A stretch of 64,000 bases of DNA from Escherichia coli (GCF_013315695.1 NZ_CP054353.1); one strand, 5' to 3'; positions 1-4,421 are shown, counted from the stretch's first letter. Notes: generated from the sequence alone by a model not told the origin. Made by a program: numbers and translations.

Positions 1-2179
1 TCACTGGAACCCGGGCTTCATACTGGGTATCGTTTAAACGTTGTAACGTCAGCCAGTTTGCCGGATGCGAAAGCAGCGACTGCTGTTCCACGCGATCGCG
101 TTCCAGCGTCAATAATGCTTCATCAATTGGCTCCGGAAAGGTAATCAGCATCTTCGCAGTTTCGCCTGGCTGGTACAGCGTTTTATCCGCCACGATATCT
201 ACCGTACCAGTATGCGCCGTGCTGCCCTTACCGCTGACGGCATGACTTAACCCAGCGAGAATTAAGCCGTCTTTATCGCGTAATGTCAGATTGTAGTTGC
301 CAGGTTTAGCGAAATTGACGGTAAAGGATTTGCCGCCTGACGGTAGCTCTCCGCTATGGCTCGTGCGGTCTTCGAGACGCAACCATTCATACGTAACAGG
401 AACCTGTTTTGAAGATTCCAGCGCGGCATAACGGAACACAACCGATTCACCGCTATTACTGTATTGTGCGGCAGTACTTAATGAGTAATGTGCCAGTCCA
501 CGTTCAATGAGGATCTCTTTGGTGGTGGTGACACGATACGCCGCACCGTCACTGGCGGAGACGGTTAACAAATAGCGGCTTGGTTTATCAGCGGCGGGGA
601 GATTTAACGCCACATGACCGCTATCGTCGGATACCGTTTCACTGCCTTCCAGCGACACGGGAAAACGTCCGGCATAACGCAAATCGTTACCGACCATTGA
701 TAATTGCTGAGCGCGCAAACTTAACTGCACACGGGCATCTTTTACCGGCTCACCATCCGGGTAGAGCAGTTGCAGTTTGCCGCTGACCGCTTCGCCAGTT
801 TTGAACTCTTTTTTGTCGAGAGCTAAGCCAATCTCGAAATGTGGCTTGATGTAGTTTGCCACGCGAAAACTACTGCTATAGACCTGATTGCGGTAAGCAA
901 GACGCAACTCATAACCTCCGGCAACGGCATTTTCTGGCAGGCGGAAACTCCCCTGCCCGCCATTGCGCGCATCCAGCGTGACATTGATGGTTTGCAACAG
1001 ACTGCCGTTAGCGTCCAGCACCGAAAGCTTCGCCGGGGCGCTGACGATGGGGGATGAATGCAACGGATCGTGGAACTCGCGGCCCATCACTTTAACATCG
1101 ACACGATCGCCTGCGCGATATAGCGGGCGATCGGTAAAGATATACAAGCGGGTGTTGTAGATTTCACTTTCGTAGAAGAAGTTCTCGGAGACAAAAACGC
1201 CGCCTTCCGCATCTTTACCCAGAATGTATGAGCGTTCCGGCGATATATGTTGTAACTGCAAGGTACCGCTGTCATCGGTCACCCCGCGTGTCATCACGCC
1301 AAGACCGTCAGTCCACAGGATCTCTGAGCCTGGCTTCGCTTCACCCTGTTTTTTGCCCGCGGTCCACACCAGAAGTTCGTTGCCTGACACTTTGCTAAGC
1401 GCCACGGTATCGGAGACAAATACCACCGTCGTCGCCCGATACCCACCTATCATCGCCTCGACGAGGTACAATCCCGGCTCTTGTTTGCCGAGAGGAATAT
1501 AAATGTTACCCGGCTGCGGCGAGATGAAATTGTTGGATGCGCCTTCCAGTTTTACCCCTTGCTGCGGCTCGACCGGTTTAGCCTGCCATAGTGGATAACG
1601 GAATTGTTCCACCAGTGGATATTTTTTCAGCGGTGAAAACTGGCTGTTCTGTACATAACGGGAAGGTTTAACAATGGCATTACCGAGCTGTAATTCGGGT
1701 AACGCCTGAGTCACATTCTGCCGTGACTGAGAAGAGAAAGTACGCTGCATTACACGGCGAGATTTGCCATACCAGTTATCCCACAGCCAGGTCAGCGTAT
1801 TGTTTAGCCCGTCGCCCAGATATTTCGGTTGCACCACAATGCGATGCAGGTTTTTCTGCTGGCGCAAAAATGCCATCGGGTCAGGAATACGATACAGGCG
1901 AACGTCCACGCCACCGTACTCTTCCATCTGATAGCGTCGATAATCACGCCCCGGCGCTTCCAGTCGCACTTTCGCCTCTTCACTGCTGCTAAAACTGCTG
2001 TCAGCGAGCAAAAAGAATGTTCCCCCGGCGGGCGGCGCATAGTTACTGGAAGGAAGCGAATCATCAGCATTAGCAAGCCCTGTTCCCACAAGAGACAGGC
2101 AAAAGCACGCTGCTATCGCGCCAGAAAATTTAAACGATAAATGCCAATGAAATTGGGATTGGAATCGTTGGGTATCCAT
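1..2179 (-). CDS. yfaS: alpha-2-macroglobulin family protein YfaS, N-terminal ~727 codons (gene runs off the window start)
   Basis: Hand translation of the minus strand from ATG at 2179..2177 gives [67 protein letters not shown] (signal peptide, A-N-A cleavage motif). The same frame reads [19 protein letters not shown] at positions 58..1. The ORF track lists no minus-strand ORF terminating in this frame, so it is open through the window. Confidence 0.75.
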
Positions 2180-2736
2180 CGGGTGTCCTTCCATGTCATA
2201 AGTTGTTGCAGACTGACTGCGCGCATTCCGTTGTCAGTTTTCGTGGCGCTTCCGGTGTGGTAGATGACGTAACGCCCCATCCAGACCATTAAGTGCTGGG
2301 CATCGCCCTGATCGAAAAAAATCATATCGCCAGGCAGCGCCTGGTTTATGTCCTGGCCAATAAATTGGCTGTTGTACTGAATCAAATTAATCGCGGTCAC
2401 ATAGGGGCCGGTTTTTCCATTCCCCTGATTCCAGTTTTGCGCCAGTTGACGCTGTTCAGGTGTTAGCGTCATTTCAGGCGGCAAATACTGACTTGCTATA
2501 CCGTTACTTTTTAGCCATTTGCTGTCGTGAATTTTCAGCGCCTCGTTCGCCGCAAATCGCACCAGGCCCGCACAATCCTGCTGATACCAGCGTGGACTTG
2601 GACCCTGGCGGAGCTGTTCTTGTGCAATGCGTACAAACCAGGCGCGAAACAGCCCGGATTGTTCGACATTCAACATTTCGCTATGGGCAACAACACAACA
2701 CAGCCAGCAAATCAGCGCCAGCAGCCCGTGCCTCAT
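2113..2736 (-). CDS. yfaT: DUF1175 family protein YfaT
   Basis: ORF 2113..2763; start placed at internal Met ([14 protein letters not shown]...) immediately after the yfaA stop; matches recalled K-12 YfaT. Confidence 0.8.
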
Positions 2737-4421
2737 AGTGGCTGCCAGGTAATGGGTAGCCACTGCCAGGCGGCACCGGGTTCCATCTGGGCCAGCTTCA
2801 TGACATAACGCGGTTGTTGAGATAAAGCGTCCAGCTTCGGCATTAATAAAGTTTGTGCGGCATTATAAAAAACCGGTTCGAGATTCTTCGGCAAACTGGT
2901 CAGCGTTTCGTTACGCAGCAGTTTCGCCACGCCTTGTGGATTGATATAGAGCGGAACGATGCCGTCAGTGGGTATCACATCCACCATTGCCGGGCGGGTT
3001 TTATTCAGTGTTTGCAGGGCGTTATTAACCAGCGTGTCATCGAGGGAGAAAAGCAGCGTTTTGTTTTGCATCGCCAGCGACACGCGGAAAAAATAATCCG
3101 ACATTAATTGATCGGGTTGCGCCGCCTGCGCTTTCGGATACTGACCGTATCGGGAACTCACTTCGCGACGCCAGATTTGCGCTTCGCCCTGCTGCGTCTG
3201 GGTTACTGGCAATATACCTTCTGCCGCTTTGCTTTCGTGCGCACCAATATTTTGCGTAAACAGTTTTCCTGGCAATTGCACTTGTTCGGCAGAACCATCA
3301 AACTGACCGACAAACAGCGGAGTTTGCAATTTTGAATCTTCATACCAGCACAGCCCCGCAGCACCGTCTAACGCCCCGTTGAGCTTGTCGTTTTCCTGGC
3401 TGATGTGGGAAAGCATCTCTTCAGCAATACCATGTGAATAAGGCACCGCCACACAGAAGCTGGCCCCTGCAGGCATACTGTTCCATACCGGCGTAAAATC
3501 GAAACTGGCATCTACGCTTGCGGATTCATCATTTAACGCCAGAAAACTGTGCCAGCCGTCGTTGCTCATTTCGAAGCGCACACCAGCAAAAGAAGGCATT
3601 AATCGCTGGTAGCCAAAACCCAGCAAATTTGCACTGACCACGATGCGCTGGCGTACTGGCGTTTTTTCGGCAGTACGCTCTTCCAGACCAAAACTGGTTT
3701 CCCAGCGTTTCTTACCACTTAACAAATCACTTGCGATTGCCGCGGCTTCGGTATCCTGCTGGTCATCTTTAAACAGCATGTCCGTGCTGGAAAACACCAG
3801 CATCTTGTCCTGATAAGTTGCGAACATCAGGGCGTTATTGCCGTTATAGCGCAACTGATAAACCGGGATGGTTTCACTATTTAGCTTAATACTACTGATT
3901 TCCGTTTTACTTAACTGGCTGTCGCTGGTAGCGGCAAACAGCAATGGCTCCAGCAGCTTGCTTAAACCACTTCGCTGGATCAGCACCATATAATGAGAAA
4001 GATGGCCTTGTTTATCGTGCCATAGCGCCGCCTGCGCGGGCTGATCTAAGAGTGACGAAAAGAGCTTATCTTTTAGTGTGAGATCGTGTTCGTAGACAAT
4101 GCGGCGAATGCTGCCTTCAATGCCCAGACGATCGGCATGATTCTGATAATAGAAAACGAAATCTTCACTCAGAACATCGTGGAGAAACGGAATGGTAAGG
4201 AGGTCTTTGGGAAGCTGGCTCAGAGAGTCGCTGTCGAGAAAGAGGTCCGGCTCATTGAGATCGATTTGCAGATTGTTGTGCACCACCAGCGGCGACAACG
4301 TTTTTTCTGGCCCACTGCCAGCATATTGCAACGCCCAGACGCCAGCGGAAAGCAGTACTATTGCGCCCAAACCTACAAGACCATAGAACCGCCAGCCTTT
4401 CGCCTTTTTTTCACCACTCAT
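2733..4421 (-). CDS. yfaA: DUF2138 family protein YfaA
   Basis: ORF 2733..4463; start placed at [15 protein letters not shown]... with an N-terminal hydrophobic segment; first gene of the yfaA-yfaT-yfaS operon. Confidence 0.8.

Follow-up and report, generated by a model that had tools for sequence, protein, structure and literature searches.

The locus studied here raises two questions, namely where the translation of yfaS begins and whether this gene, a pseudogene in Escherichia coli K-12, is intact in another E. coli strain. The DNA analysed is a stretch of 64,000 nt of Escherichia coli NZ_CP054353.1 (hereafter the window; all coordinates are window positions), and the features listed below lie on its minus strand, which carries every gene of window 1-7197. 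A sequence-only reading had assigned the beginning of the window to the yfaA-yfaT-yfaS operon of a bacterial alpha-2-macroglobulin, with DUF1175 and DUF2138 proteins as accessories, and Pfam searches returned the same identities. The region is the promoter-proximal part of a five-gene E. coli operon, yfaA-yfaT-yfaS-yfaQ-yfaP, of which the window contains:

1-2179, minus strand: 5' part of yfaS, codons 1-726 of 1534, encoding a type II, thioester-less alpha-2-macroglobulin
2113-2736, minus strand: yfaT, 207 aa, DUF1175, MagC orthologue, NlpC/P60-like
2733-4421, minus strand: yfaA, 562 aa, DUF2138, MagB-type, first gene of the E. coli operon

Comparison of orthologous loci makes it likely that the translation of yfaS starts at ATG 2179, inside the coding sequence of yfaT.

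The start of yfaS within yfaT

The yfaT stop codon (2113-2115) and the yfaS ATG (2177-2179) delimit an overlap of exactly 67 nt with a frame shift of +2/-1, the ATG being located 64 nt upstream of the yfaT stop codon. The start position, overlap length and different frame proposed by the sequence-only reading were all recovered. In the yfaS frame a stop codon occurs at about 2235, after which the frame is open to base 1; from ATG 2179 this amounts to 726 codons plus 1 base, within one of the roughly 727 codons counted earlier. A frame that stays open for over 726 codons and carries MG2 and A2M domains is far beyond chance. The Pfam DUF1175 profile (PF06672, now named MagC) covers residues 20-205 of the 207 residues of YfaT (E 2.5e-58) and, since it reaches the end of the protein, both frames are coding in the overlap. 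The relevant features are the following:

2113-2179, minus strand: two-frame coding stretch, in which the final 22 codons and the stop of yfaT overlap the initial 22 codons of yfaS
2170-2205, minus strand: yfaS initiation region inside yfaT, yfaT codons -30 to -19, with synonymous sites frozen across genera
2114-2116, minus strand: ATA, Ile22 of YfaS, apparent degenerate remnant of the Pseudomonas stop-overlapping ATG (A-TGA)
2066-2179, minus strand: predicted Sec signal peptide of YfaS, 38 residues, cleavage predicted before DD

The initiation region consists of a Shine-Dalgarno sequence, AAGGA (2186-2190), a 6-nt spacer and ATG 2177-2179, and the minimum of predicted local RNA structure over the -360 to +240 range falls 10 nt upstream of this ATG. 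The conservation of the region was evaluated on 80 fetched loci containing a YfaT relative, one genome per species (three Escherichia, two Superficieibacter, Enterobacillus, Yersinia, Edaphovirga and about 70 Pseudomonas), start counts being given over 81 loci. The macroglobulin frame showed the same shift relative to yfaT in all loci and reads M-E-G-H-P-M-D-T-(R/Q)-R through the yfaT end. An ATG equivalent to 2179, spanning invariant Arg-Trp codons (CGA TGG), was present in 81/81 loci, and AAGGA was found 6 nt upstream of it in 78 of them.

Codons -30 to -19 of yfaT (CAA CTC ATG ACA TGG AAG GAC ACC CGA TGG ATA CCC) have near-invariant synonymous sites and use codons that yfaT avoids elsewhere. 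Counts at the site and background frequencies in the 72 Pseudomonas loci (GC content at third positions, GC3, 0.83) are given below:

CGA: 72/72 at the site, background 5%
ATA: 65/72 at the site, background 0.4%
ACA: 64/64 at the site, background 4%
CAA: 72/72 at the site, background 19%

When third-position identity was calculated in 12-codon windows along yfaT, the frozen block ranked first with 0.965, against a mean of 0.78 (sd 0.07). Since the near-invariant sites fall on avoided codons, the conservation of YfaT does not account for that of the start. All the frozen synonymous sites are A, which together with the structural minimum fits an unstructured ribosome-binding site. This site, AAGGA followed by 6 nt and ATG, would thus be kept inside yfaT by selection acting on the synonymous sites of that gene.

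The ATG equivalent to 2179 is the only ATG, GTG or TTG before the hydrophobic core of the signal peptide in 10 of the 81 loci, comprising all Escherichia, Superficieibacter and four Pseudomonas species; in Escherichia no such codon occurs between 2179 and the core. The E. coli yfaT stop is TAG, and because of this stop the Escherichia codon at 2114-2116 reads ATA instead of ATG. The ancestral stop-overlapping ATG would therefore have decayed in Escherichia, leaving ATG 2179 as the only usable start. Among more distant homologues, whose YfaT proteins are 45-51% identical, L086 (GTG), L087 (ATG with GGAGGA) and L088 (GTG) start at the same Arg-Trp junction, and since their hydrophobic core spans the stop of the upstream gene no other start seems possible.

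Initiation at ATG 2179 would supply YfaS with a 38-residue Sec signal peptide, having a charged n-region, an 18-residue hydrophobic core and an A-x-A site (ANA/DD). The prediction was based solely on hydrophobicity and the -3/-1 rule, and the conserved mature sequence starts directly after the A-x-A site in all orthologues, consistent with cleavage at this position. A signal peptide devoid of a conserved lipobox Cys is obtained only with the start at ATG 2179. Residues 22-25 of YfaS (I-A-A-C, 2105-2116, minus strand) fit the lipobox pattern, making a lipoprotein signal formally possible in E. coli. This Cys is replaced by Tyr in Escherichia sp. E1V33 and is absent in other genera, while the hydrophobic stretch runs past it to the A-x-A site; cleavage by signal peptidase I is more likely for these two reasons.

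The yfaT-yfaS junction has the properties expected of a genuine long gene overlap as far as sequence comparison can indicate: a conserved start and Shine-Dalgarno sequence, excess synonymous constraint and lack of an alternative start. Overlaps usually measure 1 or 4 nt, far less than the 67 nt found here. As in other long same-strand overlaps with an internal ribosome-binding site, the Shine-Dalgarno sequence and the start are embedded in the upstream coding sequence and the synonymous variation of the upstream gene is suppressed, although, unlike in that general class, a second, classic ATGA start coexists in the same frame in most Pseudomonas.

Three further elements have to be considered in weighing other explanations:

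2087-2089, minus strand: GTG, RefSeq/PGAP start, 1504 aa in E. coli MSB1_4I, no overlap with yfaT
2192-2194, minus strand: alternative in-frame ATG, five codons upstream of ATG 2179
4430-4436, minus strand: ACAAGGA over the yfaA Shine-Dalgarno sequence (ACANGGA, CsrA/RsmA-like), of putative regulatory meaning

The doubt that the sequence-only reading expressed about so long an overlap was reasonable, because RefSeq/PGAP calls the non-overlapping GTG 2089, but the comparative evidence favours the overlapping ATG. According to the RefSeq model yfaS would encode 1504 aa and the codons upstream of GTG 2089 would remain untranslated. This is the PGAP call in MSB1_4I, whose sequence matches the window exactly over 1-4600; databases most often contain the 1504-aa form (74 contigs vs 5 for the 1534-aa form), and long same-strand overlaps are often mispredictions. 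However, GTG 2089 is not preceded by a Shine-Dalgarno sequence, corresponds to GCG in E. albertii, has no counterpart in other genera and leaves the frozen synonymous sites upstream unexplained. It lies, moreover, inside the hydrophobic core, and a product starting there, 8 residues before the predicted cleavage site, would lose the core in a family of periplasmic proteins (PMC3735191). We regard this start as very improbable, and the RefSeq annotation, which strips the signal peptide, is probably wrong. Start annotation is inconsistent between pipelines, public protein databases giving the same E. coli gene 1534 aa in some records and 1504 aa in many more. A start at ATG 2194 (MEGHPMDT..., overlap of 82 nt) is unlikely as well. 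This codon is in frame and open, is found in 78/81 loci, and the Thr codon that gives its A is ACA in 100% of the Thr cases. Nevertheless, no purine-rich Shine-Dalgarno sequence occurs within 20 nt upstream, the best one, AAGGA, lying downstream of it and ideally spaced for ATG 2179, and the codon is CTG in L056, L057 and L067 (3/81 loci) and in L087, all four of which have ATG or GTG at the 2179 position. A programmed frameshift joining YfaT to YfaS was also considered and was rejected, as the conserved block contains no slippery heptamer and E. coli has a stop codon upstream in the yfaS frame.

A different explanation is that the 36-nt frozen block acts mainly as a regulatory RNA, for example as a CsrA/RsmA site with GGA motifs controlling macroglobulin translation, the ATG being incidental where downstream starts exist. 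The sequence ACAUGGAAGGA resembles the CsrA/RsmA consensus (A/U)CANGGANG. The ACANGGA motif occurs twice only on the sense strand of 1-4600, at 4430-4436 (yfaA) and 2190-2196 (yfaS), both copies cover Shine-Dalgarno sequences, and only 12 are found in 128 kb of both strands. The conservation also exceeds the needs of a Shine-Dalgarno sequence plus ATG, and the homologous Pseudomonas aeruginosa mag operon belongs to the Gac/Rsm regulon, RsmA binding the magA leader (PMC3735191, PMC12663445). On the other side, ACA is replaced by AAA or AAC in 10/81 loci, and the frozen sites, all A, fit equally well with selection for an unstructured ribosome-binding site. CsrA sites usually occur in hairpin loops, whereas the E. 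coli RNA (window 2100-2260, minus strand) was not unusually structured in comparison with shuffles (z -0.5). No Rfam family was matched either when the whole window was searched at gathering thresholds, and with these two results a structured RNA element at the block is unsupported. The regulatory explanation, which is compatible with initiation at ATG 2179 in E. coli, appears rather doubtful as the main role of the block, and a CsrA/RsmA site at this position is a possible lead, not a result.

Initiation at ATG 2179 also has to face a number of contrary observations. The 81 loci are phylogenetically non-independent, about 70 being Pseudomonas, and most Pseudomonas have one or two further in-frame ATGs downstream. 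In most of these genomes the last yfaT codon, CGA or CAA (A in 94%), is followed by a TGA stop, generating a second in-frame ATG (ATGA), and many fluorescens-group genomes carry a third ATG five codons after the second. In 94% of loci the stop-overlapping ATG is likewise maintained through a rare codon ending in A. Because of these extra ATGs, the frozen block could serve something besides or instead of initiation in Pseudomonas. In three of the six distant homologues (L083-L085) the frame is closed or lacks a start codon at this position, and the macroglobulin begins at or after the upstream stop; the overlapping start thus appears to be an old feature of one large clade and not of every DUF1175-A2M operon. 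The PAO1 MagD signal peptide was taken as 21 residues, which implies a downstream start (PMC5764988). Finally, literature searches, swamped by the "Yale Food Addiction Scale", returned no direct evidence for the use of ATG 2179, such as ribosome profiling or N-terminal proteomics of the precursor, and nothing on the yfaS start site or expression; the match in PMC4448311 was confined to a table entry close to the operon. In the P. aeruginosa-type locus L089 (magC-magD junction, 6580-6760), three in-frame MagD ATGs occur, inside magC, over the magC stop and ten codons later, the middle one having been taken by the gene caller; the conserved ribosome-binding block is also present inside magC in this locus.

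Intactness of yfaS and the K-12 lesion

The K-12 MG1655 yfaS (b4500) is annotated as a pseudogene, as the sequence-only reading had stated, and has a length of 4605 nt, the same ATG and the same 67-nt overlap. Alignment to this gene, suggested in the same reading as a check, located the lesion at codon 1368, where TGG (Trp) is changed into TGA about 1.9 kb beyond the window. The open first codons had been put forward as a reason to believe that yfaS may be intact; this reason did not hold, since K-12 is likewise open across its first 726 codons and, with the lesion lying outside, the window alone cannot tell the strain from K-12. The suggestion itself was supported by another route. Window 1-4600 is identical to E. 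coli MSB1_4I (NZ_LR898874.1), with one mismatch, at window 9891, across the 12.6 kb compared, and the MSB1_4I yfaS is a 4605-nt open reading frame of 1534 codons with zero internal stops. This matching genome provides the sole demonstration of intactness, and yfaS is almost certainly intact in the window strain.

The distribution of the two alleles was assessed with 31-mers in 5426 complete E. coli genomes. An exact match to the TGG-allele 31-mer was found in 4294 genomes, and the TGA-allele 31-mer in 364; 40 TGA-allele genomes sampled across the list were all K-12 laboratory derivatives or O16:H48. The pseudogene of K-12 thus stems from a nonsense mutation specific to its lineage, and yfaS is normally intact. 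K-12 yfaS (formerly yfaS_1/yfaS_2, b2228/b2227) differs from the window-matching gene at 133/4605 nt and 29/1534 residues, and its TGA shortens the protein by 167 residues at the C-terminus, with the loss of most of the bMG10 domain, whereas the window-matching strain keeps the codon intact.

The intactness of yfaS could still be questioned, as the remainder of the gene lies outside the window and the conclusion depends on a near-identical genome (one difference in 12.6 kb). The gene might be broken in the window strain by a lesion beyond base 1: codons 727-1534 are outside the window and, given the difference at 9891, the window may derive from a very close relative of MSB1_4I and not from that isolate. 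Against this, the five genomes matching 1-4600 at 100% (rounded, one decimal) all carry an alpha-2-macroglobulin family gene at this position, and in MSB1_4I, the only one of the five whose annotation was inspected, the gene is not flagged as a pseudogene. In addition, the exact 1534-aa YfaS protein is on record on several contigs and at least 4294/5426 genomes have the wild-type TGG at codon 1368. We therefore consider a broken yfaS exceedingly improbable.

YfaS and its partners as a mag-type system

Analysis of the full 1534-aa YfaS with Pfam returned MG2 (E 2e-26), A2M_BRD (3e-17), A2M (4e-12) and bMG10 (5e-6) domains, while a PDB sequence search gave no match. No CxEQ thioester motif is present anywhere in the protein; the corresponding position reads EPWG-G-VIN-TGSRLI from about residue 1065, with Gly replacing the thioester Cys at 1069. 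From these features YfaS is assigned to the mag-type (type II), thioester-less alpha-2-macroglobulins. The type I proteins (ECAM/YfhM of E. coli, Sa-A2M of Salmonella) belong to the same superfamily and have MG and A2M domains in common with YfaS, and both types are periplasmic and have been proposed as envelope guards (PMC3735191, PMC5764988). Type I proteins differ, however, in having a CLEQ thioester, a lipoprotein signal with a lipobox Cys and an adjoining pbpC gene, none of which YfaS has in a conserved form, its neighbours being yfaT and yfaQ.

The canonical motif YPYG-C-VEQ was observed in 15 of 78 full-length operon-type macroglobulins, all 15 from Pseudomonas, at residues of about 1075-1086 (loci L009, L010, L020, L021, L023, L024, L029, L031, L032, L041, L045, L055, L058, L062 and L082), its Cys being the only one or one of two in the protein. 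Most of the other operon-type macroglobulins read G-G-VEQ, and E. coli G-G-VIN. The thioester thus seems to have been lost stepwise within the operon-type family, some members of which may still form the bond.

YfaA matched Pfam DUF2138 over residues 15-559 (E 3e-285) and has one N-terminal transmembrane helix. YfaT, besides the full-length DUF1175 match, aligned with MagC (PDB 7BK8) over residues 21-206 (E 3e-103), showed a weak NlpC/P60 Pfam match and contains C55, H148 and H160, invariant in alignments down to 32% identity; this combination of profile, structure match and conserved Cys-His-His identifies it as a MagC/DUF1175 protein. The three residues occupy the positions expected for the NlpC/P60 Cys-His-His triad, so that YfaT may have a catalytic role. 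The NCBIfam search returned only a generic equivalog for YfaA and no match for YfaS or YfaT.

The closest known system is the P. aeruginosa mag operon (magABCDEF; MagD is PA4489), which shares with E. coli the order DUF2138, DUF1175/MagC, A2M, DUF2300, DUF2135; the E. coli genes correspond to magBCDEF, DUF2300 being the MagE family and DUF2135 that of MagF/MagA. Pfam thus recognises the type II operon in yfaA-yfaT-yfaS-yfaQ-yfaP, but not its six-gene form, as magA is absent ahead of the E. coli DUF2138 gene, where gyrA ends 148 nt upstream. In L089, whose MagC differs from PDB 7BK8 at 1/212 aligned positions, the gene order is YfaP-like MagA, DUF2138, MagC, A2M and DUF2300. YfaT is about 70% identical to MagC, and YfaS shares 52-55% identity with its Pseudomonas orthologues along the full length of the protein. 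The thioester Cys is missing from YfaS as from P. aeruginosa MagD, although the E. coli site is more degenerate (GGVIN vs GGVEQ of the Pseudomonas mag system). E. coli has also lost the stop-overlapping and other downstream ATGs found in Pseudomonas, so that the overlapping start alone remains.

MagD has a signal peptide and is experimentally periplasmic, being associated with the inner membrane together with MagA, MagB and MagF (PMC3735191); it traps protease non-covalently in a MagB-dependent manner (PMC5764988), and magD confers protection from VgrG3 and Tae1, type VI effectors that target peptidoglycan (PMC12663445). By analogy, YfaS would be a protein exported to the periplasm and retained at the inner membrane through the single-pass, MagB-type YfaA, with YfaT as its NlpC/P60-like, peptidoglycan-binding partner of MagC type. 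The complex might trap or neutralise incoming hydrolases, which in P. aeruginosa include proteases and peptidoglycan-targeting type VI effectors. YfaA-YfaT-YfaS-YfaQ-YfaP would then most likely represent an envelope guard like the Mag complex, with the caveat that the biochemical function of the E. coli proteins is deduced from homology.

Operon context and significance

The yfaA stop and the yfaT start share ATGA 2733-2736, and the PGAP and K-12 annotations concur on the yfaA start. The gyrA stop is at 4570 and the gap to the yfaA start measures 148 nt; a simple scan of this gap detected no sigma-70 consensus promoter, the sole feature being:

4533-4550, minus strand: terminator-like hairpin after gyrA, within the 148-nt gyrA-yfaA gap

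In MSB1_4I, yfaS is followed by yfaQ (DUF2300 plus a SpoIID-like stretch), yfaP (DUF2135) and the convergent atoB. YfaQ (L001, the MSB1_4I locus, 3925-5574, just beyond the window) contains two DUF2300 copies and the SpoIID-like stretch (PF08486, E 7e-6), a further link of the operon to peptidoglycan. At window 7548-11026, between gyrA and ubiG, a mandelate racemase-like gene, an MFS transporter and a GntR regulator are located, all absent from K-12 MG1655. The transporter and the regulator are annotated as frameshifted pseudogenes in MSB1_4I, and the mismatch at 9891 falls within the transporter gene.

The locus, the gene families, the K-12 pseudogene and the overlapping start (present in the K-12 annotation) were already known and, beyond the annotation detail, the locus is ordinary and would not surprise a specialist. 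The present analysis adds the exact K-12 lesion and its confinement to the K-12 lineage, comparative evidence pointing to a real 67-nt overlap, the observation that Escherichia has lost the alternative ATGA start through decay, and the recognition that the common RefSeq 1504-aa model removes the signal peptide.

Most RefSeq E. coli genomes carry this 1504-aa model and, lacking a signal peptide, a periplasmic defence protein will be called cytoplasmic by localisation predictors; a genome survey did list yfaS among proteins of roughly 170 kDa not predicted to be secreted (PMC5012682). The corrected start thus matters for cloning or studying the E. coli counterpart of the Pseudomonas Mag complex. 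As K-12 is a natural truncation mutant, wild isolates such as the window strain are the right background for such studies. More tentatively, the 36-nt block may be a conserved internal initiation region in Enterobacterales and Pseudomonas, including P. aeruginosa, producing precursors with a long leader or two to three start isoforms, and may also be a CsrA/RsmA target (ACAUGGAAGGA). If true, such targeting would allow the macroglobulin to be synthesised independently of its partners. The conserved start inside magC offers, in any case, a clean, testable example of a long overlap that would be maintained by selection.

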